The position numbers and the translations under genes were made by a program. Below the pieces are notes generated by a model. That model was not told the origin of the DNA and searched no databases. It saw nothing but the letters and a program-made list of their open reading frames with translations. From Alphaproteobacteria bacterium (lineage in GTDB: Bacteria > Pseudomonadota > Alphaproteobacteria > MPNO01 > UBA2964): DNA of 64,000 nt. Below, in pieces: positions 7,830 to 47,965 of this stretch; position 1 is the first letter of the stretch; every line of letters starts with the position of its first letter. The stretch lies in assembly GCA_012103315.1 (NCBI GenBank), contig WLWZ01000011.1, forward strand, positions 11,869 to 75,868. Direction: 5' to 3'.

Positions 7830-8996
7830 CTAACCCCAAAGTTCCTTACTGGCGATTTCCGCGCCTTCAACTAGCGCGTCGAACTTGGCCCACATCACCG
7901 ATGGATGCACCCGGCGATAGAATGGTCCTTGTGCGAAACCACAGTCTGTCCCTGCGATGACTCGTTCTTTACCGATTAAGTTCGCGATCCGGACAATACG
8001 CTCGGCAACCAGTTCAGGATGCTCGACGACATTGGTGGTGTGGCTGATGACGCCATGGATGAGAACTTTGTCATTCGGCAATCCGGCATCGCCCCAGACT
8101 TTCCATTCATGCTCATGGCGGGCATTGGCACCTTCGATGACGTAGGCTCCGGCATTCACCTTGAGGATCAAGTCCACGATGTCTTTCAATGCGACGTCAG
8201 TGGTGTGTGGGCCAGGCCAGCTACCCCAGCAAACGTGATAGCGGATTTTTTCAGCCGGAATGCCTTCAAGGGCAAAGTTCAGAACTTCGACATGCTTGGC
8301 AACCCAATCGCGATATTCCTCGAAAGTGCCGGGCGGTACCATACGGTCGTAGGTAACGGTGGCGCGGGCATCATCGAGCTGCAGGAGCAACCCAGAATCC
8401 ACGATGGCGTTGTATTCGACCTTCATGGCGTTGCCGATGGCTTCCAGGCAGTCATCTTCGGTGGCGTAATACTCGTTGATCCGGTCGGGAATAACGCTTG
8501 ATGGTGCTGCGACGGGCAGGAAGCCTTCCCTCACACCGGCCTGATCAAGCGCGGCCTTCATATTTGCGACATCGCGTTCAACTTCTGGCAGGCCGGTATA
8601 TTTAATCGGTCCGGTGCAAACCGCCTGATTAACCGTCGCGTATTTTTGTTTGCCATCTAGCTCTTCATAGAACTCCGCAAAGCGTTCGCGGTCAGCACCC
8701 TGAGCGAAGGTGTCATTGTCGGCTGGCATCTCACGTTTCTCAAAGCCGCTGAGCCGTTCGAGGGCATATTGCGACCAGCTGATTGATTTGCCGAACTCGC
8801 CGTCACTGGGAATGTCGATGCCAGCTGCTTTTTGTTCGGCAACAATTGTTGCGACGCTGCTCTTCAGACAATCAGCATAGGCGGCTTCATCGTATGGCTG
8901 ACCGGCCTGCAACGGCTTAATGTAGGTGAGCAATTCCTCAGGTCGGATAAGGCTGCCGACATGGGTTGTAAGGATTTTGTTTGTACTGCGCTGCAT
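7830..8996 (-). CDS. cobalamin-independent methionine synthase (MetE) C-terminal-domain-like methyltransferase
   Basis: Zn-site motifs of the MetE catalytic domain are present: 'YHVCWGSW' (H-x-C), '...AGTDCGFA' (the Cys ligand) and 'LQLDDA'. The N-terminus 'LTTHVGSLIRP' resembles the MetE 'TTTIGSFP' region. At 388 aa it is the short 'methionine synthase II-like' type. Confidence 0.6.
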   Translation of the reverse strand: MQRSTNKILTTHVGSLIRPEELLTYIKPLQAGQPYDEAAYADCLKSSVATIVAEQKAAGIDIPSDGEFGKSISWSQYALERLSGFEKREMPADNDTFAQGADRERFAEFYEELDGKQKYATVNQAVCTGPIKYTGLPEVERDVANMKAALDQAGVREGFLPVAAPSSVIPDRINEYYATEDDCLEAIGNAMKVEYNAIVDSGLLLQLDDARATVTYDRMVPPGTFEEYRDWVAKHVEVLNFALEGIPAEKIRYHVCWGSWPGPHTTDVALKDIVDLILKVNAGAYVIEGANARHEHEWKVWGDAGLPNDKVLIHGVISHTTNVVEHPELVAERIVRIANLIGKERVIAGTDCGFAQGPFYRRVHPSVMWAKFDALVEGAEIASKELWG

Positions 8997-12479: not shown

Positions 12480-12760
12480 CGCATGCTTTGAGACCAGGAG
12501 TAATTTGAAATGAAAGCGCTGACTTATTCACTACTAAATGAATTTTGTGACGTTTCAATCTGGGTAACGTTAGGGCTCAGAGAAAGCCTGCCCATCCCGC
12601 GGATTAATGGCACTTATCATGCCAAATCTGTCATTTAGATGAGGTCTTGCTGAATCAGTGATTTGAGTCTTAGAATATTGGGGAATCGGTTTTTGATCGA
12701 CCGCTTCGATACGGCGTCAACGGTATGGCGCGAAGCAATAAATCAACTTCGGGAGGTACT

Positions 12761-13795
12761 ATGATTAAATACACTTTACCAATAGTTCTCGCCGCCTCCG
12801 TGACCGCTCTGCCGGCACTGGCGAATAAAGCGAAGCTAATGGAACTTTACAAAGAGAAAACCGTGACCATTACGATTCCGTATGGTCCTGGCGGAACTTA
12901 TGACAAATATGGTTTGAGTTTCTCTAATCATCTGGGACGTCAACTTCCCGGTAAGCCAAATATGATTCTGCAGTATATGCCAGGTGCCGGTGGTGCTAAG
13001 GCCATGAACTGGTTTGCCAATGTCGCCCCTAGACATGGCCGGAACCTGATTGTGCCGCTCGACAATACGGTTATCAACCAGGTCCTGCGTCCAAAAAAGA
13101 TGCGCTACAATGCAAACGATTTCACATGGCTTGGTTCTTCTAACCAGACTAATTCAGTGATCGTTATTCGTGCTGATAAAGGCATCAAGCACATCAATGA
13201 CATGAAAAAGATTCAGGCGATCGGTTCAACGAGTGGTAAGAACTCAAGCACTTATATCTTTTCTGTCTTAGCGGCAAAATTACTTGGCCTTAAGATGAAG
13301 ATGGTGACAGGTTATAAAGGGTCATCACGGTCTATCTTCGCCATCGAACAGGGTGAAGTCGATTTCACGGCACCGAACTGGCTGGCTTGGAATTCAAAAG
13401 TGCCGCATTGGTTCAAGGGCAAGAAACCTTTTGCTATTCCGATTTTGCAGAATGGGTTCTTTGTTGACCCCAATATTCCAGATGTACCCATGTTCACGGA
13501 ACTTGTGAAACCAGCAGACAGGCCTTTGGCTTCATTTCTGGCGTCAGCTGGTCCGCTTGGTCGCGGTTTGATTTTGCCACCAAAATCGCCGAAATACCTG
13601 ACGAAACCGCTTCGCGCGGCTTATGATGCGATGAACGCTGATCCGAAGTTCAATGCTGAACTGAAGAAACGTAAGCTTCGCTTGATCGCCAGTAAGGGTG
13701 AAGTCATTCAGGGTATTGTTGCTAAAGCGCTTAAAGACACATCACCTGCCGTCATCGCACGGGTAAGGTCATTGGTCTTTGGTAGCGGAAGCTAA
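12761..13795 (+). CDS. TctC/Bug-family periplasmic substrate-binding protein (orphan)
   Basis: Signal peptide 'MIKYTLPIVLAASVTALPALA'. Bug-family motifs 'PGAGGAKA', 'GYKGSS'. The start is moved to the ATG at 12761, which follows a GGGAGG RBS. Confidence 0.75.
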   Translation: MIKYTLPIVLAASVTALPALANKAKLMELYKEKTVTITIPYGPGGTYDKYGLSFSNHLGRQLPGKPNMILQYMPGAGGAKAMNWFANVAPRHGRNLIVPLDNTVINQVLRPKKMRYNANDFTWLGSSNQTNSVIVIRADKGIKHINDMKKIQAIGSTSGKNSSTYIFSVLAAKLLGLKMKMVTGYKGSSRSIFAIEQGEVDFTAPNWLAWNSKVPHWFKGKKPFAIPILQNGFFVDPNIPDVPMFTELVKPADRPLASFLASAGPLGRGLILPPKSPKYLTKPLRAAYDAMNADPKFNAELKKRKLRLIASKGEVIQGIVAKALKDTSPAVIARVRSLVFGSGS

Positions 13796-13821
13796 GTCCT
13801 AGACTTTAAGTTCGACAGAAA

Positions 13822-13854
13822 GGCGGTCCCTGGTTTCCAGGGGCCGCTTTTTTT
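13822..13854. terminator. rho-independent terminator (probably bidirectional)
   Basis: 11 bp stem 'gcggtccctgg' / 'ccaggggccgc' (one G.U pair), 3 nt loop, then a T7 run. It lies between the tctC paralogue stop (13795) and the convergent Rieske gene stop (13857). Confidence 0.7.
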
Positions 13855-13856
13855 AT

Positions 13857-14906
13857 TTAAACAGCATGAAGTTTGGTGTTTTCAGTCTCTTCAGCAATCA
13901 AGCGGTCGACAAGACGTCGTACTTCAAGGGCACCGGCATCTGCACCAACATCTATCTTAGGCGCGCCGTCCCATCGATCCTGTTGGGCCTCGATGATCAC
14001 AATATCTTCGTTAAAGGCAAGGACAGAGGCATCGTAGATGGCATCCTCCTGTTCACTTGATAACCCATCTGCCTTGTTGGCCATTACCCAGAGATAGAGC
14101 GTGGTCTCATCGGTCTCGGGCATTGCAAGATGCAAGGTATGACGATCTAACAACATGTTCTCTGGGGCGGCTTCACGACCGCCAGTTCCGGCCTTGGATG
14201 AGCCGACCTGGAGCCAGACAAATCCCGGTGGGGCGTACTCAATTACTTGCCAGCGATCAACATTATCAGAATAGCCAGTCACAGCGACATGTGCGGGGGC
14301 CGGGGCGATATCTTCCATAAATCGGGTAATACGAACCCGGTCACCATCACGTTCGGTTTTGGCCACGGCTTGTTCCGCCACGCCGGATGCGCCGATGGTG
14401 GATTTGTGGGCGAACGGCAGGTGCGTGACATCCATCAAATTATCGATGAGTAGGCGGTTATCAAAATGCCCATATAGATGCGCATAGCGGACACGCCAAT
14501 CGGCGTTGGAGGCGAAGGGAAAATCATAGGGCACTACGGAATTGCTGAGAGCTGGGTCGCCCATCCAAACGTGGATAAATCCCTGTTGTTCGATACACGG
14601 GTATGAGCGCACGGCGGCACCCGGCGGAATCTGCTTTTGGCTCGGAACGCGAACGCAGGCACCACTGCAGTCATATTCAAGGCCGTGATAGCCGCATTGA
14701 ATATTGTCCCCGACAATCTCTCCGAGCGACAAAGGTGCCTGCCGGTGAACACAGCGATCTTCCAGAACAACAACCTTGCCGGTGGATGGTGTACGAAACA
14801 AAACAAGAGGCTCGTTCAGCATGCGCGATGCAATGGGTTTATCCGTTACCTCTTCGGTGAGGCCTGCGACATACCAACGATTTCTCAATTGGGGGGTATT
14901 GATCAT
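13857..14906 (-). CDS. Rieske non-haem iron oxygenase alpha subunit, VanA-like (O-demethylase/monooxygenase class)
   Basis: Rieske motif 'CVHRQAPLS...CGYHGL'. The N-terminus 'WYVAGLTEEV' and the 349 aa length are typical of the VanA/TsaM class. There is a catalytic mononuclear-iron domain with H/D ligands ('DVTHLPFAH'). No reductase partner is present in the window. Confidence 0.7.
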   Translation of the reverse strand: MINTPQLRNRWYVAGLTEEVTDKPIASRMLNEPLVLFRTPSTGKVVVLEDRCVHRQAPLSLGEIVGDNIQCGYHGLEYDCSGACVRVPSQKQIPPGAAVRSYPCIEQQGFIHVWMGDPALSNSVVPYDFPFASNADWRVRYAHLYGHFDNRLLIDNLMDVTHLPFAHKSTIGASGVAEQAVAKTERDGDRVRITRFMEDIAPAPAHVAVTGYSDNVDRWQVIEYAPPGFVWLQVGSSKAGTGGREAAPENMLLDRHTLHLAMPETDETTLYLWVMANKADGLSSEQEDAIYDASVLAFNEDIVIIEAQQDRWDGAPKIDVGADAGALEVRRLVDRLIAEETENTKLHAV

Positions 14907-14965
14907 CTATCTCGTCCAGACTGTGTGAGGCGACATTCTAGAGCGCCTTCGATCAGAATCAAAAT

Positions 14966-15769
14966 TCAAGGCACGTGGTGTGTGTTTGTTGCGCGGAGCA
15001 TTTGGATAACGATAAAGGCGGCCACGGCGGCGAAAAGATGTTTGAGCGTATGGCCGCTTAGCGCACCCTGTAGAACGCTATAAAGCCAGTGATCGAGTTT
15101 CTCCAGCGCCATGGCACTGCCATACCAGGCGATTACCCAGAGTAGGTATGATGCTTTGGTGTAACGACCATTTGGAAACAGGATTAAAACAATGGGCAAC
15201 AAGGCGATTGGAAAGAATTGGACAAAGCCATAGAACCGTAAATCCCCGGTCCCCTGCGCTTCGGTGATGGACCAGTAGATCAGGCTAGCAGCACCTAGCG
15301 TTACGAGAAGGGGCAAAAGCCAGGGAATGATGTTTGGGCGGTTGATCCGGTCGGTTAGAAAAGCTGTGAAGAAACCCATAAAGGCCATCGTCATTGGCAA
15401 TCGGTCCCAGAACAAACGATCATTATCCGGTGCCCCGTGATAGTAGGCAGAGCCAACACTGACCAAAGCCACGCCGCTAAAGAAAACGATATAGGGCCAT
15501 TTTTCGAGAGATCGTGGAAAAATCGACTGCCCTGTTGGCCCAAGTATGGTCCAAAGCCCCCAGAGGCCGACCAGCGCAAAAGCGGCATTTGACACGGTGT
15601 TCCCAAAATTCACGATGCCGAGACAGGTGCGTACGTCGGCAAACAAGTGAAATGTGGGGTCCTGTGGGATCGGTGAAACTTGAAGCAGGCCAATGAATGC
15701 GGCTATTCCAATGGCGCTCAAAATACTGACGTTTCTGGCATAGTTTGGTCCGTCGGTTTCAGGTCTCAT
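14966..15769 (-). CDS. 7-TM integral membrane hydrolase of the ceramidase/CREST superfamily (alkaline-ceramidase-like)
   Basis: Seven predicted TM helices. It carries a C-terminal 'HTLKH' (HxxxH) motif and an earlier 'YYHGAPDND' His/Asp motif, as in alkaline ceramidase / PAQR-type 7TM hydrolases. Its ATG overlaps the EutA-like stop (TGATG), so the two are translationally coupled. Confidence 0.4.
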   Translation of the reverse strand: MRPETDGPNYARNVSILSAIGIAAFIGLLQVSPIPQDPTFHLFADVRTCLGIVNFGNTVSNAAFALVGLWGLWTILGPTGQSIFPRSLEKWPYIVFFSGVALVSVGSAYYHGAPDNDRLFWDRLPMTMAFMGFFTAFLTDRINRPNIIPWLLPLLVTLGAASLIYWSITEAQGTGDLRFYGFVQFFPIALLPIVLILFPNGRYTKASYLLWVIAWYGSAMALEKLDHWLYSVLQGALSGHTLKHLFAAVAAFIVIQMLRATNTHHVP

Positions 15770-17283
15770 CAACCGTCCACTCCATCTCGTCCCAGCGCAG
15801 CGCTATCCGGAAACAACAATGACTTTATAACGACGGGGACGGCGCCGGAAGCGGCCATCATGTCGCCGATATCGATATAATCGAACTCTTCAAGGGCGAT
15901 GCTGTCGATCGAGATGATCGGGACCTCTAGCTTCAGCTCTTCGGCAGCATGAATGCCAAAGACTTTCCCGATATCGCCTTCGCAGACCATGACCAATGGG
16001 TGTCTATTTTTAAGGTGCCTGGAAAGCCCTTCAGACACACCTGATAGGAAGTCATGAATACGCTGGTAGCTCGCTGAACCCAACCAGTCGAAGCATAGGG
16101 CAATCGGTTGCTCTGCACCAGCTTGGTCGAGGCGCAGTAAGGCATTGGTGACAGCGTCGGTGACATTCGTTTGGTCGATCTCATCCAGTTCCAATGCGAA
16201 GGCGGGTTTGATAACCGGGATATTGCGCAACGGCAGAAGCGTTTCGTCTGACACCATGATCGTGGTGCCAGATAGTTGGATGGTATATTGCGAGGCTCCG
16301 ACGACTGTGGCTCTAATATTCTCGACCGGCGGCATGACGCGATAGCCGGCGCTTTCTATTCGCCGGTGAATAGCCCGCCCGAGATAGTTACCAAGATCGC
16401 CGAACGTGCTTTCCTCATACCCGTAGATGAATTCAGAAACGCCGCCGGAAAAGGTGAGTGCATCGATTTCGCCGCGCCAGCTAATCGGTGCTAGCCGATG
16501 GAGTGCCTCGGTTTCAGTTGAGGGAACGCGCAATGTAATAATTTCTTCCAGCCGATCCGCCATCTTTTCTGCGATGTTCTCACAATCAGCTGCTGTAATG
16601 TGATCGCCCGGTGAAAGCTCAAGCCCCGCTTCATGAATAAAAATCCGCCCAGCTTCTTCAATTCGCGTGATGGTGCCAGCATCGTCAAAGGCGATTAGCC
16701 GCGCGCCAATATCAACAGCAGTCAGCCCAACGATCTCACCTTTGTCGCAAATAGCAACCTTGGTTGTGCCACCGCCGATATCAATGTTCATCACCACGAC
16801 ACCAACGTCTTTAGAATTTATCACTGCGCCAGAACCGTAGGCCGCCATCGCCGCTTCCATCTGATCTCCGGCGGAGACAGAGACAAATTTACCGGTTTCG
16901 ACGGCGAAGAGTTCTCCGATAGCCCGGGCATTTTGTCGTCGAACGGCGAGGCCGGTGAGAATGAGGGCGCCGGTATCAACTTCGTCGGGGCGCAGCTGGG
17001 CTGAGCGATACTGGCCAGCGATATAGTCAGCGAGCTTGTCGGAATCGATGGTTTGCTGGTCGGTGTAGGGCGTCAGGAAGATATCAGAGTCATAGATGAC
17101 CTGGCGTTCGGCCGCGACATAGCGGCCATCGCGCTGTTCCATTCGTAGCCGTGAGAATACGAGATGCGATGTCGAGGAACCAATGTCGACACCGACACTG
17201 ACGAGTGAGGTCTTTTCTGCTCCAGCGAGATTGCGTTGCTCGGCAAAAACAACCCGACCACCTTCTTCTTCCTCGTCATACAC
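15769..17283 (-). CDS. eutA: EutA homologue (ethanolamine ammonia-lyase reactivase family, ASKHA ATPase), orphan
   Basis: It matches E. coli EutA blocks: 'LVSVGVDIGSSTSHLVFSRL' vs 'LLSVGIDIGTTTTQVIFSRL'; 'IDIGGGTT'; 'IRATVVGASQYTIQLSGTTI' vs 'VRATVIGAGAHTLSLSGSTI'; 'LPLRNIPV'; 'DYIDIG'; 'VPVVIKSLLFP'. No eutB/eutC-like ORF is present anywhere in the window. Confidence 0.75.
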   Translation of the reverse strand: MYDEEEEGGRVVFAEQRNLAGAEKTSLVSVGVDIGSSTSHLVFSRLRMEQRDGRYVAAERQVIYDSDIFLTPYTDQQTIDSDKLADYIAGQYRSAQLRPDEVDTGALILTGLAVRRQNARAIGELFAVETGKFVSVSAGDQMEAAMAAYGSGAVINSKDVGVVVMNIDIGGGTTKVAICDKGEIVGLTAVDIGARLIAFDDAGTITRIEEAGRIFIHEAGLELSPGDHITAADCENIAEKMADRLEEIITLRVPSTETEALHRLAPISWRGEIDALTFSGGVSEFIYGYEESTFGDLGNYLGRAIHRRIESAGYRVMPPVENIRATVVGASQYTIQLSGTTIMVSDETLLPLRNIPVIKPAFALELDEIDQTNVTDAVTNALLRLDQAGAEQPIALCFDWLGSASYQRIHDFLSGVSEGLSRHLKNRHPLVMVCEGDIGKVFGIHAAEELKLEVPIISIDSIALEEFDYIDIGDMMAASGAVPVVIKSLLFPDSAALGRDGVDG

Positions 17284-17314
17284 GATCTTTTACGAGGCCT
17301 TCCGTCATTTAGGT

Positions 17315-18541
17315 TTAGCCACCAGCAAAGGAGTAGGTAGTGTTCTTATCATAGAATTTTTCGTCCATCCGGTTCTCTGATCCTTCGGAGGTTAACGCTT
17401 CGGCAAAACTCGACCGTACCTGTGGATCTTCGAGCGAATAGGGAACAGAAGCGCCACCAGCATAGGTTATATCGACCATCCCAGGGTCGACGACCGTATC
17501 ACCTGGGATGCCGGCTTGTTGCGCGAGGTGATTATTGGGACCGTACCAGCCAAGTAATCGAAGCGGTTCATCGCCAGTTGAGAAATGCTGATGAAACCAG
17601 TCACCCTCCATCGGTGCGGCGGAAATCATGCTGAACTGGCCATATTCTTGGCGAAGCACATTGTCACCCTGGCCGTCTTGCCAGGGCGTTGGACCGAGCT
17701 CCTGTGGCCAGGTGTAGGAATACCCCTTTCCGCCAATGCATATGAACGCGGCGGCTGAGCCCGGCGAATAGGCCCGTGAATAACGGCCAGCGGGGTGCTC
17801 GCCGATATATTGGTAAAACACATTTTCCGCCATTTGCGGTTCCATCCGGCGGTAGCCGGGTGTTCGACGATTATCGAGATAAAGCTCTGTTGTGAAGACG
17901 TCGGCGACGACATTGGTCCTGCACATGGCCAAGCCGCGTGCAGGGTCAGGCTGTAACCCGTCTGATGGCTCGAAGCTGCTACCGGTTGGGTCATAGCGCT
18001 TCTTCATTTGTAGGGACGAGGCAAAAATAATGTCTTCATCCCGCATCAGATTGAACATGTTAGGTGCGGTGGTTCCCGCCAACAAAATTGCCGGATTGGC
18101 GGATGAGTTCACGATGCGATGATGGGTATTCATCGGGATTGCAAAAAGTGAACCGCGGCTCCATTCAAAGACTTCAGGACGATCTTGCCCATCTTCCCAA
18201 ATCTCGGTTGTGCCGCGCCCTTCGAGAACCAGATAGACCTCTTCGTAAAGGTGCCGTTCTTCGTTTAGTGCCCCGGCGCCGGGAACCTCAATAAGATAGC
18301 TACCCCATTTGCCTTCGGTGCCAAACAGCTGGATAAAGCAACCGCGTCCACCCATCTGGTCCCAAGGTTGCATTGGCAAATTCAGAACGTTGGCGATCCC
18401 AATTTCCCGGATTACTGGAATATTCTGTGCCTCCATAAAATCATCATAAGGCGTCGCCAATCTCGGCCAGGATGGGGTGCCGGCATACAGGTCGCGTCCG
18501 GGTTCGTGCCAGTGCGGATCACCCGCGACATCATGGGGCAT
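17315..18541 (-). CDS. bicupin-fold protein (gentisate-dioxygenase-like architecture), paralogue of 23052-24254
   Basis: Cupin motif 2 ('...WFHQHFSTGDEP', P-x5-H-x3-N spacing) is retained. The paralogue's 'HRHAAGTHVH' His cluster is replaced here by 'RYSRAYS'. It is the first gene of the minus-strand operon ending with the Rieske oxygenase. Confidence 0.4.
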   Translation of the reverse strand: MPHDVAGDPHWHEPGRDLYAGTPSWPRLATPYDDFMEAQNIPVIREIGIANVLNLPMQPWDQMGGRGCFIQLFGTEGKWGSYLIEVPGAGALNEERHLYEEVYLVLEGRGTTEIWEDGQDRPEVFEWSRGSLFAIPMNTHHRIVNSSANPAILLAGTTAPNMFNLMRDEDIIFASSLQMKKRYDPTGSSFEPSDGLQPDPARGLAMCRTNVVADVFTTELYLDNRRTPGYRRMEPQMAENVFYQYIGEHPAGRYSRAYSPGSAAAFICIGGKGYSYTWPQELGPTPWQDGQGDNVLRQEYGQFSMISAAPMEGDWFHQHFSTGDEPLRLLGWYGPNNHLAQQAGIPGDTVVDPGMVDITYAGGASVPYSLEDPQVRSSFAEALTSEGSENRMDEKFYDKNTTYSFAGG

Positions 18542-18694
18542 AAATCGCTCTTAACTAGTTAGAAAACTGCCAAAAAACTTGATACCGAACATGGTCAAAC
18601 GAAGGACAGCTGTCAAGTTTGGCCCCGGTGTTCCTTAGAATACATATGCGGCGCATAATGGTGGTTAAGCAGGGATCGAACGAGAGGTGTGAAC

Positions 18695-19480
18695 ATGAAT
18701 TGGTTAGAAGACAAGGTCGTTTTTATCACCGGCGCTGGCGAAGGCATCGGCAAGGTCGTTGTAAACCGGTTTTTGAACGAAGGTGTTGCCGGCATCGTGG
18801 CGTTTGACTTGATCGATGACCGGCTAGCGGAGCTGCAATCAACGTATGGCGATCGCATTGAGACTGTTTGCGGTGACGTTCGAAACCTCAAAGATAATGA
18901 GAAAGCAGTCGAACTAGCGGTATCCAAATTCGGCAAGCTCGATGTGTTCGTTGGGAATGCGGGTGTTCGGGATGGTCGCAAACGACTGGAAGATATGGGC
19001 GAAAAGGAACTGCATCAGGGTTTCGACGATGTCTTCGGTATCAATGTGAAGGGCTACATGATTGGAGCCGCCGCGGTACGGGAAGAACTCGTGAAAATCC
19101 GGGGCTGTATCGTCCTTACATTATCGACGTCATCTTTTTATGTTGGCAGTGGACCGATTTATACGGCCTCCAAACATGCAGCTCTTGGTCTTATGCGAGC
19201 GCTTGCGCATGAACTTGCGCCCGATATCAGGGTCAATGGTGTGGCACCTAGCGGAACACCGACGTCTTTTTCAGATGCTGACAGTTTGGTTGAGCCCGAC
19301 TCCGCTCGGACGGCAATCCGTACAGGTGGTCCGAATAGTAATATTCTGCATCGTCAGACAGAGCCAGAAGATCACGCGGCCGCTTATGTGTTGCTGGCAT
19401 CCGATCAATCTGCGGTGATGACGGGATCGGTCATCAATAGCGATGCGGGACGCGGCGTTTCCGTCGCGTCCCAGCGTTAA
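18695..19480 (+). CDS. short-chain dehydrogenase/reductase (classical SDR, BphB / cis-diol dehydrogenase-like)
   Basis: 'VVFITGAGEGIGK' Rossmann motif, 'NAG' and 'YTASKHA' (YxxxK) catalytic motifs. It is divergent from the bicupin-EutA operon. The start is taken at MNWLED. Confidence 0.75.
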   Translation: MNWLEDKVVFITGAGEGIGKVVVNRFLNEGVAGIVAFDLIDDRLAELQSTYGDRIETVCGDVRNLKDNEKAVELAVSKFGKLDVFVGNAGVRDGRKRLEDMGEKELHQGFDDVFGINVKGYMIGAAAVREELVKIRGCIVLTLSTSSFYVGSGPIYTASKHAALGLMRALAHELAPDIRVNGVAPSGTPTSFSDADSLVEPDSARTAIRTGGPNSNILHRQTEPEDHAAAYVLLASDQSAVMTGSVINSDAGRGVSVASQR

Positions 19481-19490
19481 AAGGTCGAAC

Positions 19491-20861
19491 TCAGGCACCC
19501 CAGGGTGTGATGGCTTCTTTCAAGGAAGCATAGCCCTGCAGGAAGCCAGGTCGATCACCGTTATAGACTTCGTCAAACTTGGCGAGCGCATCATCAAGGA
19601 ACGCTTCTAGCTCCTTATTGTCTTTATTAGCATCAAGATAGGCATCGCGGATCAGGACGAAATGAATACGGGAGTCATAAGGCTGTTTCGTACCGCCGAC
19701 CCATTCATCACCATCCAATAAACGCAGCAACATGGCATCCGCTGACCCCAGCGTCTGCTCATGAATGGCAGGACCCGTCATGCGGTGCATAACAGACGTC
19801 ATGTCACGACCGTTGCCGGTGGTGTAACCCATATCAGTCCATATTTTGCGCATGTCGACGTCTTGACCGAGATGCTTGGCAACCTTGCCACCAAAAGCAC
19901 GCAACGGATCGGAAATATCAGCCATCAGATCTGTCAGGCGGTCGCCATCAAGATCGGTGGCGAGAACAATGCAGTCCTGCTGTTCAATTAGATCCCATAC
20001 CAACAAGCCATAGTTCGTGTCAGCAATATGCTGTTCGATCCGGCCACCCCAATTTTCCATGCCGTCCTTAAAGTCGGCTGGGAGGAGGGCAATGATCTTG
20101 TCGATCTCTTCCTTAAACTCATCATACGGGTCAACTGCGTATTTACGTCCTACCTCAAATTTGGTGCCTTGAAGTAACCAGCTGTGAAGACCGGCATTGA
20201 TGCCATCTTCTTGCGCCTGCGTCGGCTTGGTGGCGACGCGGCCCAAGCGGCCCGTTTCGTGGACCATTTGGAGGAATAGGCGGTTGGCGTAGGCAAGCTG
20301 GACGCCGGGGGTGTTCATTTCTGAATGCACGATGCCGGTCTCGGCGTTGACGCCAAAGACGGCCTTGTCCTGCGAATAGGGTAGACATGGCATACAGCGC
20401 ACGGCAGTGATCGGACCATAAGGGCGCACGTTGCAATATACGCCTGCTTGGGTCCGCAGCGGTGCGTTACCGGACTTACCCATCACAACGACTTTGCCGC
20501 CTTTGCCGTCATTAACGTACGCATCACCTGCCGTTGACCATTTGATGGAGATACAGGGCATGTTGCCGAACCAGGTCAGGGGTTCGAGATTATGATCATG
20601 TCGATATTGCGACCACATAGGTACTGCGTAGAAAGGCAGGCCCAACACATCGATCGCGGCCATGGTACCGATCAGCGCAAATGCATCTGTCATTGAATGA
20701 GCAACTGGCTCAACCTTGCCATCATGATTTCCACCCTGCCAGACAGCAGCGTCCGGAAAGCCTGTTGGTCGTACATCGGTGGGCTCATATAAATCGTTGA
20801 GCAGGCCAAACAGGTCTCCGCCATCGGCTTCGGTGCGGGCAATATTCATCAGATCAAGCAT
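19491..20861 (-). CDS. conserved hypothetical protein (456 aa), no recognisable family
   Basis: A long ORF with coding-like composition. It has paired Cys ('CMPCLPY') but no hydrogenase-type RxCGxC/DPCxxC motifs. It lies immediately downstream of the EndoG-like nuclease gene. Confidence 0.3.
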   Translation of the reverse strand: MLDLMNIARTEADGGDLFGLLNDLYEPTDVRPTGFPDAAVWQGGNHDGKVEPVAHSMTDAFALIGTMAAIDVLGLPFYAVPMWSQYRHDHNLEPLTWFGNMPCISIKWSTAGDAYVNDGKGGKVVVMGKSGNAPLRTQAGVYCNVRPYGPITAVRCMPCLPYSQDKAVFGVNAETGIVHSEMNTPGVQLAYANRLFLQMVHETGRLGRVATKPTQAQEDGINAGLHSWLLQGTKFEVGRKYAVDPYDEFKEEIDKIIALLPADFKDGMENWGGRIEQHIADTNYGLLVWDLIEQQDCIVLATDLDGDRLTDLMADISDPLRAFGGKVAKHLGQDVDMRKIWTDMGYTTGNGRDMTSVMHRMTGPAIHEQTLGSADAMLLRLLDGDEWVGGTKQPYDSRIHFVLIRDAYLDANKDNKELEAFLDDALAKFDEVYNGDRPGFLQGYASLKEAITPWGA

Positions 20862-21816: not shown

Positions 21817-23045
21817 TTATACTTGAAAGCGGTTTGGCTTGAAGGGGGCGTCGTCAACGACTGGCGTTTTGTTTTCAAATAAATCCGCGAGAAGCTCTGC
21901 ACTTGCGGCCGACGTTGAGAGACCGTTGTGCTGGTGGCCAAAATTAAACCATAGCCCTTGATGTTGGGGGGCAGCGCCAATCATTGGAAGGCTATCGACC
22001 AAGGTCGGGCGGCGGCCCATCCAAGGCGTGTCTTCTACCTTGTCGCCAAGCGATGTGGCTTGCCGTGCGGAGCGGATAGATTGTTCAACTTGGCGATCAT
22101 TTAGAGGCGCATCCCGATCAGTGAGCTCTACGCCAGATGTAACCCGGACTCCTTGCTGCTGTGGGGTCATGACATATCCCGCGTCGACATCATGAACGGC
22201 TCTTTGCAGGGCTGGGCCCGTTCCCAGGCCATCGGTATTTTGTAGCCAAGACCCTTGGCAATTTCTGCAGACCAAGGTCCGGCTGCGAGGACAACCGCGT
22301 CGCTTGATATTAGCTCACCGTCTGTTAACTGAACTTCCCAAGTGGCGGATTTCTGTATCTTCTTAGCCGCACCGAGAATGACCTGTCCGCCCGCTTCGAT
22401 GAATATGGAGAGATAGGCATCGCAAAGGGCTGCCGGGCTGGAAACGCTACAGGCATTATGAAGAAGAACACCGTGGCGAAATATTGGGTTTAGCGCGGGC
22501 TCCAGCTGTCTGAGTTCCTCTTCTGAATATTTTGTATGTCCAACGCCGGTCTTCTCAAACACCTTGAGTTCCATACCATAGGCCTGATAGCTCGTGTCAC
22601 TGCGGAAGACCTTAAGCCACCCTGTTTTGCGCAATAATGAGTCGGCTCCGGAATCGGAAATAAGACCCAGATGGAGTTGCAACGAATGAGCTTGCAAGGC
22701 ACGCAATGCCCAGCTGCTATGGTCTAGATGTTGATCAGTGCAATAGCTTAGAAAGCGCGTGACCCAGGGCAACCGCTTGATAACAAACCAAAGGCTGTAG
22801 TTGAGCGCATTGCTCTTTTTCAGAATGAGCTTTGGGAGGCGCTTTCGGAGACCCGGATTATTAGAAATAACCACAGACCCATCCGATAATACGCCGGTAT
22901 TGCCGTAGGACGTCTCACGACCGGGCTGTTTTGGATCAAGCAGCGAGACCTGATAACCGCGCCGCTGGAACTCCAGGGCGGTTGTTATCCCGACGATTCC
23001 GCCGCCAACGACCGTTATGCGTTGAGGCGACGTCACCGATTCCAA
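21817..23045 (-). pseudogene. FAD-dependent oxidoreductase (DadA / D-amino-acid dehydrogenase-like), interrupted by a 1-nt frameshift
   Basis: The N-terminal part (22167-23045) has 'RITVVGGGIVGITTALEF' (GxGxxG). The C-terminal part (21817-22275, a different frame) has the 'RP...D..P.IG...GLWFNFGHQHNGLSTSAASAELLADL' tail of the DAO family. The two frames overlap, and the switch maps to a G/C homopolymer region near 22205-22218. Confidence 0.55.
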
Positions 23046-23051
23046 TGCCGC

Positions 23052-24254
23052 TTAAACTGCGGGGCCAATTGATTGTGGTGTCTTGATTGGGCCAGTAAGC
23101 TCGCTATCAGGCAGAGCTAGAATCGAAGGCTCGTCGAAGACATCGGTCATGTTTGAGCTCACACCATTCTCGGCAATCGCTTCCAGCCATTTGCGATGGA
23201 TGCGAGGATCCTGATCTTCATATTCGACCTGGCGGCCACCTTCCTGAATTGATGTCGCGCCTTTGCCTTCTGCGCTTTTGCGGCGTAGCGCAATAAATGG
23301 ATAGCGACGGCTGCCCATGCTGCACGCCAGATAGCGCGCCGGTTGATCGCAGGTGTTGAAATGTTGATGGAACATCCAGAACGGCGGCGTGTACATAAAG
23401 CCATGTTCCCAGGGAAATTCCTTGAATTCCTGATCGCCTTCATACCACAGAAGGGTATAGCCGGTGCCGCTAACGGCATGAACATGGGTCCCGGCGGCAT
23501 GACGATGGGCCTTTTTGTAGCGGCCCATTGGTATTTCTGACGAATGGGCATGCATTGTGCTGTCGGCCAGAATAAACGAAACGTTCAACGATCCTTTGCC
23601 GCGTGAATCCATCGCGTAAAGTTTGAAGTTGGTCAGGTCATTGACGAAATTCGTTTCCCAAAGATTAGCCTCTGCAACATTGTCGCCGCGATTAACCGTG
23701 AGATGATCACCCTCGCCATCAAAATGCTTGCTGTCGCCAATCCTCTCCGGAAAATCGAAATCATTTTCGAACACAAAGCGTTCGTTATGAAATAGGTTGA
23801 TGACCAGCGGTGCGTCATTCGTGCAAGACAGACGCGCGGGCTCTTGTCCGGAGCCGTTGAATATCTGGTATTCGCAGTTCAGTGGCACTGTGAACAGAGA
23901 TTTGGGTCCCCATTCAAAGGTACGCACTTCGCCGTCGGGGTAGGTGACTGTGGTTGAGCCATAGCCTGACAGGGCATAGAAGAAGGCTTCGTAGATATGT
24001 TTGATGGGGGCAGTCTTTTTACTCGGCGCAACTTCTAAAACATAGTTTGCCATGAAGTCGCCATTGCCGTGGGTGTGCGCAAAACAGCCGCGCGCATCCC
24101 ATCGATCCCAGACATCTGTCTCAAGCGCCAGCAGGTTATGCCCGAAGTCGAGATGCATGGGTATGCCTTCACCCTTCGCCCAGTCCATATAGGGATCAAC
24201 CAGGAATTTCTTGCTTAAATCGATTTCTTCTTCGGGAGTATTTTCGTCAGACAT
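23052..24254 (-). CDS. bicupin-fold protein (gentisate-dioxygenase-like), paralogue of 17315-18541
   Basis: 'KAHRHAAGTHVHAVSGTGYT' (His-rich cupin motif 1) and 'PPFWMFHQHFN' (motif 2). The C-terminal half shares long blocks with the other paralogue. Confidence 0.45.
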   Translation of the reverse strand: MSDENTPEEEIDLSKKFLVDPYMDWAKGEGIPMHLDFGHNLLALETDVWDRWDARGCFAHTHGNGDFMANYVLEVAPSKKTAPIKHIYEAFFYALSGYGSTTVTYPDGEVRTFEWGPKSLFTVPLNCEYQIFNGSGQEPARLSCTNDAPLVINLFHNERFVFENDFDFPERIGDSKHFDGEGDHLTVNRGDNVAEANLWETNFVNDLTNFKLYAMDSRGKGSLNVSFILADSTMHAHSSEIPMGRYKKAHRHAAGTHVHAVSGTGYTLLWYEGDQEFKEFPWEHGFMYTPPFWMFHQHFNTCDQPARYLACSMGSRRYPFIALRRKSAEGKGATSIQEGGRQVEYEDQDPRIHRKWLEAIAENGVSSNMTDVFDEPSILALPDSELTGPIKTPQSIGPAV

Positions 24255-24806: not shown

Positions 24807-26303
24807 TTATGCCTCCGTTTCCTGTGCCCGGAGTTTTGAATTCCGGTCCTGGAACATTGGATAGCATACGCAAACCACGAGGATCGCAAAGATGATCAAC
24901 ACACCGGGTCGTAATAGGAAGTCGGCGCCAAAGAGCTGTACTGATGTCCACATATGACGTTCAGCGATCGGGCCAAGCACAAGCCCGAGCAGAAGTGGCG
25001 GGCGCGGCCAACCCGCGGCCCGCATGAAATAGCCGATGGTTCCGAAAGCGAACATGATTATGACATCTTCGAAACGGCTGGAGGCGGCGAAGCTGCCAAT
25101 TACCGCCATTGCCAGAATGATGGGAATCATCAGGGAGGGGCGTAGCTTGGACGCCATCGCGAGTTGCCGGGTAAAGGCAAGACACAAAATCGATGTAATG
25201 ATTGTTCCGATGATCAGGAGCCAGATCATTGAGAAGGTGAGATGCAAATCTTTGGTCAGCATGTCACGTCCGGGCGTAATCCCGACGATGATCAACCCGC
25301 CAAAAATGAGCGCCAATGTGCTCGACCCTGGAATACCAAAGGCGAGGGTAGGGATTAGGGAGCCACCTTCTTTGGCATTGGTCGCTGCATCGACGGCGAT
25401 AACACCGCGAACATCACCTTTGCCAAATGTCTCGCGAGCACCTTCACAAGTTTGTTTGGCGCTACCATAAGCGAACCAGTCGGCAACCGCTGAACCGAGG
25501 CCCGGGATAATGCCAACCCAAACGCCGATCAGGCTACTGCGGAGGACGAGCCAGCGGTGGGTAAATGCATCCTTGATGCCTTGCCGCCGGCCTTTGCCAA
25601 GATCGCCCAGCGGAAGGTCAGAAATTCCTGTTCCTTTAACGCCCATATAGATCAGCTCGGGAATAGCGAACAATCCAATGGTGACCGGAATTAGTTTTAA
25701 CCCATCCAGCAAGTAAATTTGGTCGAAGGTAAAACGGTGCAGGCCGGTAATCATGTGAACACCGACCATCGAAATAACAAGCCCGAGGCCGCCTGCAATG
25801 ATGCCTTTAACGGGAGCTTTTCCGCTCAGGGCACCGACCATGGCGATACCAACCATTACCAACATAAAGAATTCAGGGGGGCCGAGTAATAGGACAAGAG
25901 GGCGTAGGATCGGGATCGCGACAAGAAGCACCATTGCGCCAATGATGCCGCCTATTGCTGAGGAGGTGAAGGCTGCGGCCAAGGCACGCGCGGCTTCACC
26001 TTTCTTGGCCATTGGATAGCCATCCATGATGGTGGCTTGCGAGCCACCACCACCCGGGACGCTGAACAGAATTGAAGTGATCGAATTGGCGGTATTGCTG
26101 ACCGCCCAGACGCTCATAATGAGGCAGATCGCTTCGAACTGATTGAGAACGAAGGCAATAGGGAGCAGTAATGCGATGGCGGTTTTACTGCCAATGCCGG
26201 GCATAGCGACCAACGTCGAACTAATGACGATACCTACCATCATCAGTAACAACGCTTTCCACTGTAGAATGCCGTAGAGGCCTTCAAGGGCAGCGTCGAT
26301 CAT
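24807..26303 (-). CDS. tctA: tripartite tricarboxylate transporter large permease TctA
   Basis: 498 aa polytopic membrane protein with the duplicated TctA fold and repeated 'G.PG..' / 'GIIPGLG' motifs. Confidence 0.8.
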   Translation of the reverse strand: MIDAALEGLYGILQWKALLLMMVGIVISSTLVAMPGIGSKTAIALLLPIAFVLNQFEAICLIMSVWAVSNTANSITSILFSVPGGGGSQATIMDGYPMAKKGEAARALAAAFTSSAIGGIIGAMVLLVAIPILRPLVLLLGPPEFFMLVMVGIAMVGALSGKAPVKGIIAGGLGLVISMVGVHMITGLHRFTFDQIYLLDGLKLIPVTIGLFAIPELIYMGVKGTGISDLPLGDLGKGRRQGIKDAFTHRWLVLRSSLIGVWVGIIPGLGSAVADWFAYGSAKQTCEGARETFGKGDVRGVIAVDAATNAKEGGSLIPTLAFGIPGSSTLALIFGGLIIVGITPGRDMLTKDLHLTFSMIWLLIIGTIITSILCLAFTRQLAMASKLRPSLMIPIILAMAVIGSFAASSRFEDVIIMFAFGTIGYFMRAAGWPRPPLLLGLVLGPIAERHMWTSVQLFGADFLLRPGVLIIFAILVVCVCYPMFQDRNSKLRAQETEA

Positions 26304-30336: not shown

Positions 30337-31065
30337 ATGACCGAATTCGACGCTATTATTCCACGGGCTCGGTTGGGTTTTATCATTCCGTCATCAAACC
30401 GGATGGTAGAACCGCAATTGCAGCATTACTGCCCGGATGGCGTCGTTCCCCATTTTAACCGGATCGGCATGACCAATCGGCATAAGGCGCCGCTCGATGA
30501 GTTGATGCCGCGGATACTATTGGCCGCTGAATTGCTCGGTGATTCCAAATGCGACGTGACGGTATTGCAATGTACCGGGACGTCGATGTCGGGCGGTGTC
30601 GAGAACGAACGAGAGGTCATCTCGGCGATTGAGGATTTGACCGGAAAGCCGGCAGCCTCGGCGGCTTCTTCGCTGATGGATGCTTTTCAGGCGATAGATG
30701 CACAGCGTTTGGTGTTTGTGTCGGAAACCCCTCAGGCCGGCCATGACAAAAAACTGGCCTTTTTGAGAGAGGCTGGGCTGGACATCATTGCGGACAAGGC
30801 AATGGAACTCGGGGGCAGTGATATCTATTGCAGCACGCCACCTGAATTCTGGTTTGAGAATGTAATGGCCATGCGCAATGACGATGCTGATGCTTACTTC
30901 GTCAGTTGCGCCAATATCCACAGTGTCGATGTTATCGAAGCCCTGGAAGATGAGCTTGGTCGACCCGTGATCACCAGCAATCAGGCGGCGCTTTGGTCAG
31001 CGCTCCGCCTGGCTGGTTTAAACGACAATATCTCCGCTTTGGGCCGGTTATTTAAGACCGGCTAA
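30337..31065 (+). CDS. Asp/Glu/hydantoin racemase superfamily protein (maleate isomerase / arylmalonate decarboxylase-like)
   Basis: 'LGFIIPSSNRMVE' N-terminal motif and the two-Cys architecture of the maleate isomerase / AMDase class ('LQCTGTS', 'VSCANI'). Confidence 0.55.
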   Translation: MTEFDAIIPRARLGFIIPSSNRMVEPQLQHYCPDGVVPHFNRIGMTNRHKAPLDELMPRILLAAELLGDSKCDVTVLQCTGTSMSGGVENEREVISAIEDLTGKPAASAASSLMDAFQAIDAQRLVFVSETPQAGHDKKLAFLREAGLDIIADKAMELGGSDIYCSTPPEFWFENVMAMRNDDADAYFVSCANIHSVDVIEALEDELGRPVITSNQAALWSALRLAGLNDNISALGRLFKTG

Positions 31066-43838: not shown

Positions 43839-44440
43839 CTAACTTTTTGCCGCTGTTTTCGCCATTTGTACCAGGTGAGGAGGGCGAAAGCGGGGGCGCC
43901 AACTGAAGCGCCGACCACAAACGGCATTTGCCAGCCAAGCCAGACAATGGGTGCGAACAAATAAAGCACGTCATCGAAATCAAACCCCCAGATGCCGGGG
44001 TAGGCTTTGTCGCCGGTGTCAGTGTTCATCTGGTCGATCTTTTCGGCATAGATTTCGGCAGCGAAGACACCGGCCGTGCCCAGGGCACCCATCAAGATCA
44101 TCCAGTTTCCAAAATGTCCGTCACGTAGCCCGATGCCGGCGCCGATGAAGAACAGAGAGGTCACGGTAATATCGCAGAACATGTCATAACGATGACCGCC
44201 AGGAGTAATCTTGCCGGTTAACCGAGCTAGTTCGCCATCAGCGCGGTCCATAAAGGCGGAGAACAACCAGAGCCAGCCGCCCCAGATATCCCACTGGCGA
44301 TCACCGATTGCGAAGGCGGAGCAGGCGGCGACGCCTGTAATTAGCCGCAACGTCGTCAAATGGTTCGGTGTGACGGCCGTGTTGGCCAGCGGGGCGATAC
44401 ATATTTTTGCAATTTTATGGGTCCAGGAGTCGCCGACCAT
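43835..44440 (-). CDS. CDP-alcohol phosphatidyltransferase family protein, translationally coupled to hpnK
   Basis: Signature 'DRADGELARLTGKITPGGHRYDMFCD' (D-x2-D-G-x2-A-R...G...D-x3-D). It is a six-TM protein. Its ATG overlaps the hpnK stop. Confidence 0.7.
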   Translation of the reverse strand: MVGDSWTHKIAKICIAPLANTAVTPNHLTTLRLITGVAACSAFAIGDRQWDIWGGWLWLFSAFMDRADGELARLTGKITPGGHRYDMFCDITVTSLFFIGAGIGLRDGHFGNWMILMGALGTAGVFAAEIYAEKIDQMNTDTGDKAYPGIWGFDFDDVLYLFAPIVWLGWQMPFVVGASVGAPAFALLTWYKWRKQRQKVS

Positions 44441-45270
44441 TATATATCCCTGTATGTCGATAGTTTGATATCAGAATTAGCGATTGCCGCCGCAACATCA
44501 GGCGAGATCAAGGCATCGAATTCCTCTTTAAACTTAAAGTCAGACGCCGCAGGGTCCATACCCTCCCAATCTCCCGTAGCGGGATGAGAGAAAATTTCCG
44601 TGACCCCATCACGCAATTTTGTGATGGCGGACAGGAGCTGGGTTTGATTGAGCGTTCCAGTCTCAGTGATGCCAATAATTTGGTCGTTATACCGGATGCC
44701 CGCCCGCCGCAAACGCCAACGCATCAAACTGATCCATGGTGAAAGTAACACCGCTCCCAAGCCACCATTCTTTTCAGCAGGCAGCCGAACCGCTTTGATG
44801 CCAAATTCCGCTGCATTCTCGAGAATGCAGCTGAGCACGATCGGGTGAAGATGCATATGGTTGTGGGCATTCACATGATCGAGCGCCAAGCCGGTATCTC
44901 GAAAGGCTCTGAACTGCGCTCGAATCTCTGCACTGAGTTGGCGCCGTGCCCTAGGTGAAAAGAAGTAGCGAAACCCTGCGCGAACAAGGTTGTCCTCCAA
45001 GAACCCATTTGGCGCAATGGAGGAAAGCTGGTCCGGTGGTAGCGTAGATCTGCCTCGTGCAACGACGATGTGAAGCCCAACACCAAGATCAGGGTGCCGT
45101 TTAGCGCGCGCGATAGCGTCTCGTACTTCAGGCTCGCCGACCATCAGGCAGGTCGCTGTCAAGATTCCGTTGGAATGTGCTGCTTCGATCGCTTCGTTTA
45201 CCGGAATCGATATGCCGAAATCATCACCCGTGACGATTAAGCGTTTCAGACTGCGTTCTCCCGGCCCCAC
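44440..45270 (-). CDS. hpnK: YdjC-like carbohydrate deacetylase, hopanoid-associated HpnK
   Basis: 'LIVTGDDFGIS' N-terminal ChbG/YdjC motif and 'HVNAHNHMHLHP'. It sits directly after a B12-radical-SAM gene and a GT2 gene, in the hpnIJK order. Confidence 0.65.
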   Translation of the reverse strand: MGPGERSLKRLIVTGDDFGISIPVNEAIEAAHSNGILTATCLMVGEPEVRDAIARAKRHPDLGVGLHIVVARGRSTLPPDQLSSIAPNGFLEDNLVRAGFRYFFSPRARRQLSAEIRAQFRAFRDTGLALDHVNAHNHMHLHPIVLSCILENAAEFGIKAVRLPAEKNGGLGAVLLSPWISLMRWRLRRAGIRYNDQIIGITETGTLNQTQLLSAITKLRDGVTEIFSHPATGDWEGMDPAASDFKFKEEFDALISPDVAAAIANSDIKLSTYRDI

Positions 45271-46673: not shown

Positions 46674-46709
46674 CCTGTATTCCGTATCCCCTGGATCTTG
46701 ATTTCTGGC

Positions 46710-47876: not shown

Positions 47877-47965
47877 ACCGGTAACCTCAACCTTCCGTAT
47901 TAATGCGGGCGCTATGTCTAGCCTGTAACCGCTTCACACACAATCTTTCTAAGGCATTCTGGCGA

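Follow-up and report, generated by a model that had tools for sequence, protein, structure and literature searches.

The activating and reactivating proteins that come closest to the one described here are EutA of E. coli and Salmonella (Pfam PF06277), the diol and glycerol dehydratase reactivases DdrAB/GdrAB, RACo, which is the reductive activator of a corrinoid Fe-S protein, and the HgdC/BcrAD-type activators. DdrAB/GdrAB, RACo and HgdC/BcrAD serve B12, corrinoid or Fe-S radical enzymes, unlike the present ATPase, for which the candidate client is a cupin protein. Among Fe(II) bicupins, the gentisate, salicylate, 1-hydroxy-2-naphthoate and 5-aminosalicylate 1,2-dioxygenases have been described, and we know of no member of the gentisate/salicylate-type families that needs an ATPase. 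A dedicated helper encoded next to the ring-cleaving enzyme that it serves is known for extradiol dioxygenases, whose inactivated metal centre is restored by a XylT-type ferredoxin; the parallel is an analogy only, and XylT, a small [2Fe-2S] ferredoxin, works by reduction, uses no ATP and is unrelated to the ATPase in sequence and fold. The metallochaperones HypB, UreE/UreG, CooJ/CooC and COG0523 combine a His-rich disordered terminal segment with a nucleotide hydrolase beside a metalloenzyme client, much as the present pair appears to do, but they rely on P-loop GTPases or ATPases and not on an ASKHA fold, and the likeness is one of sequence pattern and of its complementary distribution between the partners. 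A search of the published literature for an EutA-family ATPase with a cupin or dioxygenase module found nothing relevant.

We analysed a 64-kb stretch of DNA (the window). Positions 13857-18541 are occupied by a cassette of four minus-strand genes, for a bicupin, an ATPase of the EutA family, a 7-TM protein resembling ceramidases and a Rieske oxygenase of the VanA type. The features of the locus are as follows:

12725..13795, plus strand, TctC-family solute-binding protein, convergent with the cassette
13817..13847, minus strand, GC-rich hairpin GCGGCCCCTGG-AAA-CCAGGGACCGC followed by CTTTCT, read from the sequence after the Rieske stop codon
13857..14906, minus strand, VanA/phthalate-family Rieske oxygenase, 349 aa (Rieske plus VanA_C domains)
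14966..15772, minus strand, ceramidase/CREST-like 7-TM protein, 268 aa (PF05875, 39.2 bits, cutoff 32.5)
15769..17283, minus strand, EutA-family ASKHA ATPase, 504 aa, GTG start (Pfam EutA, PF06277)
17315..18541, minus strand, type A bicupin of 408 aa (Cupin_2), the ATPase's conserved partner and its candidate client
18689..19480, plus strand, divergent SDR, cis-dihydrodiol dehydrogenase-like, HcaB/BphB type (adh_short)
23052..24254, minus strand, Bicupin2, 400 aa, 28% identical to the 408-aa bicupin

The positions and strand originally given for the four cassette genes match the ORF listing, and the intergenic gaps of 31, -4 and 59 nt agree with the junctions read from the sequence: the TAA stop codon of the bicupin gene is followed after 31 nt by the GTG start of the ATPase gene, the TGA stop of the latter overlaps the start of the ceramidase-like gene in TTGATGA, and a gap of 59 nt precedes the ATG of the Rieske gene. 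The hairpin at 13817..13847 is, from its sequence, likely to be the terminator that closes the cassette, and may possibly act bidirectionally with the convergent TctC gene. It was not called by a consensus terminator scan, and the number of sites returned by the promoter and terminator scan was no higher than in shuffled sequence. In the 268-aa protein the ACER-type Zn-ligand motifs SAYYH, WDR and HTLKH are legible, consistent with membership of the alkaline ceramidase/CREST family. The divergent SDR scored 274 bits against NF004849 (cutoff 330); in the closest loci it accompanies the cassette as well.

The ATPase had been described as matching E. coli EutA along its whole length, and BLASTP with the K-12 protein indeed gave 33% identity from end to end over 478 aligned positions (E 3e-75). 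The EutA profile HMM matched at 413.6 bits (cutoff 27) over model positions 2-474 of 475, which places the protein in the EutA family and not with the hydantoinase or BadF type; other ASKHA families (BadF, hydantoinase, MutL) were ruled out, as the only secondary Pfam matches, to MreB, FtsA and Ppx, were below threshold. The intact ATP-binding motifs DIGSST (residues 33-38), DIGGGT (168-173) and SGGVSE (279-284) are invariant across its relatives, and the phosphate-1 DxGxT, phosphate-2 DxGGGT and adenosine GG motifs, together with the fold, identify it as a member of the ASKHA superfamily. It has these motifs, as well as a C-terminal acidic D..D..D motif, in common with EutA, but differs by a clade-specific N-terminal 'EEGGRVxF' extension that is missing from the E. 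coli protein, and it scored under all four NCBIfam EutA equivalog cutoffs (358.9 bits against 598 for NF007992, the best of the four, 267.9 against 769 for NF007993, 244.2 against 952 for NF007994 and 219.5 against 799 for NF007991). Measured by these NCBI curated sequence thresholds the protein is not an EutA equivalog, and E. coli EutA was absent among its 150 nearest family representatives. The predicted structure is of moderate confidence (pLDDT 74) with a fold that matches generic ASKHA proteins; DdrA-type reactivases, which thereby differ, were not among its top 60 fold matches, and a search of solved structures by sequence returned no EutA structure and only weak FtsA matches. The family also differs from Fe-S-type ASKHA activators in that no conserved Cys cluster of the Fe-S type was found in it. 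Weak matches to FtsA, MreB and PilM were seen in sequence as well as in fold.

A canonical eut context was considered and rejected, as tblastn of the window and of all related loci gave EutA only. Thirteen E. coli Eut proteins (EutB, C, K, L, M, N, H and others) were searched against the 64-kb window and EutA alone matched, while Pfam detected no ethanolamine ammonia-lyase (EAL), diol dehydratase, mutase or B12-binding domain in ~48/55 large ORFs of the window, in line with the original prediction that eutB, eutC, shell proteins and recognisable AdoCbl enzymes are missing here. The ATPase is similarly orphaned from B12 enzymes in its relatives: eutBC genes were found neither in the 84 reference-genome and closest loci nor in 80 more distant metagenome loci, giving 0 of ~160 related loci with eutBC within 10 kb, and this includes the closest relative, where eutBC was not found within 10 kb on either side in a 4.1-Mb chromosome. 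Near the ATPase there is thus no eutBC, microcompartment or B12 gene, and it is accompanied instead by a bicupin gene that is absent from the E. coli eut locus. We conclude that the bicupin-ATPase module is neither an ethanolamine nor a B12 system, and that the names 'EutA' and 'EAL reactivating factor' are almost certainly wrong for the bicupin-linked branch. On the basis of homology, thousands of genes in public databases carry the name "ethanolamine utilization protein EutA" or "EAL reactivating factor", and relatives of the 504-aa ATPase are among those annotated as EutA.

The unit that is conserved is the bicupin-ATPase pair only, which is smaller and far more widely spread than the four-gene cassette. 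A bicupin gene lies directly upstream of the ATPase gene on the same strand in 45/69 reference-genome loci, with six more having it farther upstream, and in metagenome clades with 37-45% identity to the ATPase 49 of the 61 loci that could be judged have it as an immediate neighbour on one side or the other. This leaves ~20-35% of loci without an adjacent bicupin in the two sets. Pair-bearing taxa include Alphaproteobacteria, Chloroflexota, Gemmatimonas, Binatia and Burkholderiales, and Terripilifer ovatus and Methylocella sp. CPCC 101449 are among the carriers in culture. In contrast, the ceramidase-like gene is restricted to ~5 loci among the closest (including L002, L008, L011 and L012) and the Rieske gene to ~7 close loci, and relatives with 56-69% identity have kept the bicupin-ATPase pair and have neither of these genes, which are lineage-specific add-ons. 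The four-gene 'oxygenase operon' can therefore not be maintained as the conserved context, and the membrane-associated substrate suggested along with it has no comparative support, since both genes occur in close loci only. The ATPase does not accompany every bicupin. Bicupins are more numerous than ATPases, and unpaired paralogues are present in the same genome (Bicupin2 here, and L169 as against L078 from a single assembly), which is more readily explained by a shared helper than by an obligate subunit. Viewed from the other side, an ATPase gene is missing next to 3/4 of the bicupin homologues sampled, so that the ATPase may not be a strict requirement of the bicupin. Natural fusions of bicupin and ATPase were looked for and none turned up; the 892-aa representative P0367, followed up as a possible clue to the partner, is an EutA-MFS fusion without a cupin. 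The representatives P0242 and P0245 (45-49% identity) lie on short contigs, and the partial ORF upstream of P0242 is not a bicupin.

The 408-aa partner has the bicupin fold, but falls outside the gentisate-type sequence families and does not have their three-His Fe(II) site. It shares only 12% identity with the Fe(II) bicupin dioxygenases (NCBIfam scores of 19-30 bits, where 650 is required), the sole curated-model match being the 5-aminosalicylate dioxygenase model at 18.9 bits (cutoff 650), and a PDB sequence search returned weak single-cupin matches only. In the N-terminal cupin E95-x-H97-x3-E101 together with H141 may form a metal site, whose conserved ligands are E95, H97, E100/E101 and H141, a Glu/His/Glu/His set in place of the three His of the known dioxygenases; H317 and H319 are kept in the C-terminal cupin. 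A further difference from these dioxygenases is an additional, invariant N-terminal His motif (H3 D4 ... H10 W11 H12 E13).

Comparison of the pairs separated two types, in which a His-rich N-terminal element sits on either the bicupin or the ATPase in a complementary manner. In type A pairs (n = 41) the bicupin has an H[WYF]HE tail and the ATPase tail contains at least three His in 0/41, while the type B bicupins (n = 44) have no tail motif and the ATPase tail contains at least three His in 43/44. The ATPase motif GGRxxF follows the same division (40/41 of type A and 0/44 of type B), and the N-cupin ligands differ as well, with E95 and H141 of type A replaced by Q and Y, respectively, in type B. 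At least three His are present in the tail of 60/142 ATPase family representatives, and extreme tails such as HEHEHGHEHGHGHGHEHGHDHD resemble those of the metallochaperones HypB, UreE and CooJ, which is suggestive of metal binding. The complementary pattern also offers a direct handle for experiment.

We propose, at roughly even confidence, that a gentisate-dioxygenase-like bicupin and a non-canonical EutA-family ATPase form a two-gene module, in which the bicupin is served by the ATPase as an ATP-dependent accessory factor (activase or reactivase). The two proteins would interact physically, and an ATP-driven conformational change in the ATPase, acting together with the His-rich, presumed metal-binding segment of one partner, would load, exchange or restore the catalytic metal centre of the bicupin, by analogy with canonical EutA, which swaps damaged cobalamin in ethanolamine ammonia-lyase. 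In the window the module is joined to the phthalate/VanA-type Rieske oxygenase, the cis-diol-dehydrogenase-like SDR and the TctC binding protein, which suggests that an aromatic or cyclic carboxylate is broken down, with the bicupin as candidate for the ring-cleaving step. TctA is encoded at 24807-26303, and TctC and TctA were again found near the bicupin-ATPase module in unrelated loci. The original prediction of an EutA-family ATPase recruited for another enzyme remains the most plausible reading, although the client is likely to be the bicupin and not the Rieske oxygenase.

A Rieske or ceramidase-like client, which we consider very improbable, would agree with the overlap of the ATPase stop and ceramidase-like start codons and with four genes on one strand, separated by short gaps and ending in a hairpin, but not with the few close loci (~7 and ~5, respectively) that have these genes, nor with their absence from relatives at 56-69% identity that retain the bicupin. 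Even less credible is an ordinary ethanolamine ammonia-lyase reactivase with eutBC elsewhere in the genome, since Pfam membership and the EutA names in public annotations are opposed by scores under every equivalog cutoff, by eutBC being within 10 kb in 0 of ~160 loci when a bicupin is adjacent in 65-80%, by partner-specific covariation tying the ATPase to the bicupin, and by a canonical E. coli locus that has no bicupin.

The weak likenesses to FtsA, MreB and PilM at the sequence and fold level would agree with a non-enzymatic role, for example as a scaffold of the actin/FtsA kind or in regulation, through sensing of the bicupin's substrate or product. We regard this as improbable, since these likenesses are generic to ASKHA proteins, the C-terminal domain and acidic motif common to E. 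coli EutA point to the reactivase lineage, and the His-tail covariation points to chemistry in common with the bicupin. A less remote, but still unlikely, alternative is a two-component ATP-dependent enzyme with the ATPase as a catalytic subunit that would activate the substrate (e.g. by phosphorylation, following kinase or hydantoinase/acetone-carboxylase logic) for conversion of the intermediate by the bicupin. To our knowledge, however, the sole characterised EutA-family member acts on protein, as a reactivase; moreover, bicupin paralogues without an ATPase exist in one genome and in the window, and a kinase would offer no ready explanation for His-rich tails that swap between partners.

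Should the accessory factor we favour indeed service the metal centre of the bicupin, the bicupin would be a new class of client for ASKHA (re)activases. The catabolism of environmental organic acids by cupin dioxygenases would then carry an ATP cost or maintenance step that had not been suspected, and metal-centre chaperones would be linked to B12 reactivases in evolution, in a way open to testing. More tentatively, and with somewhat less confidence than in the module itself, the large, hitherto unrecognised multi-phylum EutA branch, always without eutBC, may constitute the first ATP-dependent ASKHA metallochaperone/reactivase for cupin dioxygenases, as a two-component system with the His-rich metal-handling arm on either partner, and the B12 reactivase EutA may be a specialised offshoot of a wider group of ATPases that repair cofactor centres.

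Two further proteins were examined. A PDB sequence search with a 456-aa protein of unknown function gave no match. Bicupin2 does not have the N-terminal His motif and has no ATPase of its own in the window; it gave a weak match to gentisate 1,2-dioxygenase 3bu7 (E 3.5e-4), and its closest relatives elsewhere are the partners of His-tailed EutA-family ATPases.

The four minus-strand ORFs of the cassette are present at 13857-18541 exactly as originally predicted, with a divergent SDR beside them:

17315-18541, minus strand: bicupin, 408 aa (Pfam Cupin_2 match)
15769-17283, minus strand: EutA-family ATPase, 504 aa, GTG start (Pfam EutA, 413.6 bits, full length)
14966-15772, minus strand: ceramidase-like protein, 268 aa (Pfam Ceramidase, 39.2 bits vs 32.5)
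13857-14906, minus strand: Rieske oxygenase, 349 aa (Pfam Rieske and VanA_C)
18689-19480, plus strand: SDR, divergent from the cassette (Pfam), resembling cis-dihydrodiol dehydrogenases (NCBIfam 274 bits, cutoff 330)

Reading of the sequence also bore out the predicted junctions, with 31 nt separating the bicupin stop from the GTG start of the ATPase, a TTGATGA sequence holding both the ATPase stop and the start of the ceramidase-like gene, and a 59-nt gap before the Rieske ATG. A GC-rich hairpin with CTTTCT lies 3′ of the Rieske stop, the last in the cassette, and was not called by a consensus terminator scan.

The proposed EutA homology of the 504-aa protein was confirmed by the full-length Pfam match and by 33% identity to E. 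coli K-12 EutA, aligned end to end. The protein scored far under the curated cutoffs of all four NCBIfam EutA equivalog models (best 358.9 vs 598), and these scores place it in the EutA family as a non-canonical member, not an EutA equivalog. When 1.84 billion representatives were searched exhaustively with phmmer, 794 clusters (50% identity) matched with E below 1e-30. E. coli EutA fell outside the nearest 150 family representatives and formed its own group, so the diversity of the family far exceeds that of the characterised reactivase. Its phosphate-binding (phosphate-1 and phosphate-2) and adenosine motifs being invariant, the 504-aa protein is probably a working ATPase.

The absence of eutB, eutC or another B12 enzyme from the window was likewise supported. 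Searching the window by tblastn with E. coli EutB, C, K, L, M, N, H, G, J, E, D and T returned nothing besides EutA, and Pfam scans of about 48 of its 55 large ORFs found no ethanolamine ammonia-lyase, diol dehydratase, mutase or B12-binding domain. The ORF at 30337-31065 (plus strand), an arylmalonate-decarboxylase/Asp-Glu-racemase-like protein, has a sub-threshold match (93.7 bits vs 318) to TIGR02990, 'ectoine utilization protein EutA', which is unrelated to the ammonia-lyase reactivase of the same gene name and could cause annotation confusion.

A one-genome-per-species scan found relatives of the ATPase in at least 545 genomes, from which 80 loci were fetched, mostly from Alphaproteobacteria, with some from Chloroflexota/Dehalococcoidia, Gemmatimonas, Binatia, Comamonadaceae and Burkholderiales; two carriers are cultured (Terripilifer ovatus and Methylocella sp.). 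None of these loci contained eutB, eutC, eutL, eutM or eutH. In the closest relative, which is 85% identical and lies on a 4.1-Mb MAG chromosome, the cassette recurs together with the SDR, an unknown 456-aa gene and TctC, and relatives at 69% and 56% identity kept only the bicupin (408–411 aa), immediately upstream. Among 69 loci with enough upstream sequence, a bicupin orthologue (≥45% identity) was located on the same strand within 400 nt upstream in 45, farther upstream in 6 and absent in 18. The bicupin also ranked first in unbiased clustering of neighbouring ORFs, in which 5 loci had the ceramidase-like cluster and 7 the Rieske cluster. The comparison thus reduces the predicted four-gene oxygenase unit to a two-gene bicupin-ATPase core, of which the four-gene operon is a recent, lineage-specific elaboration.

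The 456-aa protein (19491-20861, minus strand) has no Pfam, NCBIfam or PDB match and accompanies the cassette in the closest relatives, where its conservation is unusually high (88–96% identity, against 67–86% for the ATPase). In some genomes two EutA-family paralogues are immediate neighbours with divergent transcription (Beijerinckiaceae MAG loci L038, 8082-9803, and L081, 1756-3492), and one of the two adjoins an ABC-transporter permease. Loci of this kind have no adjacent bicupin, but a proline-iminopeptidase-like alpha/beta-hydrolase gene directly follows that of the ATPase, in 18 loci. Beijerinckiaceae loci repeatedly have an MFS_3 gene close to the ATPase as well, and one family representative (P0367, 892 aa) is an apparent fusion of the ATPase with an MFS_3 transporter, which could be a gene-calling artefact.

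Strikingly His-rich N-terminal tails are common among the 142 nearest family representatives, 60 of which have ≥3 His there, whereas the E. coli protein lacks such a tail altogether. A metagenome scan seeded with the His-tailed clades (alignment A4) returned 80 loci with approximately 37–45% identity to the window ATPase, none with eutBC. A bicupin was adjacent on the same strand in 49/61 judgeable loci (31 upstream, 18 downstream), mostly closest to the second window bicupin (Bicupin2, 23052-24254; 28% identity with the first); the bicupin-ATPase pairing is thus ancient. Six metagenome loci (L115, L116, L117, L119, L120 and L129) have neither bicupin nor eutBC adjacent to the EutA-family gene, which neighbours DUF4175 (about 1087 aa), TPR and Peptidase_MA-TPR proteins and encodes a tail in which the motif HPMWRSERI is conserved; such loci may represent a third setting for EutA-family genes.

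Pooling the reference-genome and metagenome loci gave two clean classes of pairs. In type A, that of the cassette (n = 41), the bicupin carries an N-terminal H[WYF]HE motif, no ATPase tail has ≥3 His (0/41) and 40/41 tails carry GGRxxF; in type B, that of Bicupin2 (n = 44), the bicupin motif is absent, the ATPase tail has ≥3 His in 43/44 and never GGRxxF (0/44). The His element is therefore kept in the pair, on either protein. Of the computational evidence, this covariation points most strongly to a single working unit of two proteins, with a metal-binding-like arm as part of its mechanism. Across 36 sequences, the type A motif keeps H3, D4, H10, W11, H12 and E13 without exception; it lies in a segment left disordered by AF2 in an otherwise good bicupin model (pLDDT 82.6, pTM 0.84). 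Foldseek matched this model only to generic bicupins (TM about 0.44), no curated family claims the protein, and its public annotation is only 'cupin domain-containing protein'. Conserved residues suggest a putative metal site in the type A N-terminal cupin (E95-x-H97-x3-E101 and H141), the C-terminal cupin conserves H317 and H319, and H97, E100/E101, Y254, H317 and H319 persist across both types.

The protein is a non-canonical EutA-family ATPase with no B12 client nearby and a conserved, covarying bicupin partner. By analogy with the ASKHA activases EutA, DdrA, RACo and HgdC, and with His-tailed NTPase metallochaperones, it would serve to mature or reactivate the bicupin metal centre at the expense of ATP. 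Less probably, the pair could form a catalytic ATP-dependent two-component enzyme. In a search starting from bicupins on long contigs, only 1 of 4 homologues had an adjacent EutA-family gene; unpaired bicupins keep the His motif, an unpaired bicupin (L169) and a paired locus (L078) occur in the same assembly, and the window holds one ATPase and two bicupins. These numbers fit an accessory factor common to several bicupins somewhat better than an obligate catalytic subunit.

A canonical ammonia-lyase reactivase with eutBC distant in the genome is a very unlikely reading in view of the equivalog scores and the eut-free neighbourhoods. The Rieske oxygenase or the ceramidase-like protein, both cassette members, is an unlikely client, both being far less constant neighbours than the bicupin; a role of the ATPase as a scaffold or regulator is also unlikely. 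We rate the finding as an accessory ATPase of the ASKHA type that serves a new class of client; that it represents a metallochaperone system of a new type is less likely, though with an appreciable probability. A full-text literature search, of incomplete coverage and hence giving absence of evidence, found no description of EutA-family proteins paired with cupins.

The Pfam scans of its ORFs showed the window to be a catabolic island, with TctA and TctC, the second bicupin, PhyH, a second Rieske oxygenase (LigXa_C type, 55683-57062, plus strand), FAD enzymes, acyl-CoA dehydrogenases, Zn-ADHs, Amidohydro_2, the arylmalonate-decarboxylase-like protein, a UbiD-family decarboxylase (51601-52953, minus strand), aldehyde dehydrogenase, GST and amidase. 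No VanB-type reductase for either Rieske protein was found among the ORFs scanned. The cassette bicupin may perform the ring-cleavage step in the breakdown of an aromatic or cyclic carboxylate, a pathway that would be fed by the TctC/TctA transporter, the phthalate/VanA-family Rieske oxygenase and the cis-diol-dehydrogenase-like SDR.

A DAO-family FAD-dependent oxidoreductase gene (21817-23045, minus strand) appears as two overlapping ORFs (22167-23045 and 21817-22275), with 5 stops when the whole span is translated; it is either frameshifted, a pseudogene or the product of misassembly of the MAG. Genes for YdjC-like, radical SAM (475 aa), GT21 glycosyltransferase and LPG_synthase_TM proteins lie in series at 44440-48985 (minus strand), a row that resembles an hpnK/J/I/L-type hopanoid side-chain cluster; the 200-aa N-terminal region of the radical SAM protein has no Pfam match at E below 1e-5. 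Short MetE-like proteins (Meth_synt_2, cobalamin-independent) are encoded near bicupin genes in the window (7830-8996, minus strand) and in two other loci (L169, 8839-9849; L170, 7803-8249), and Amidohydro_2, Amdase-like, GST and TctC genes accompany them in unrelated loci, which suggests a common catabolic gene repertoire.
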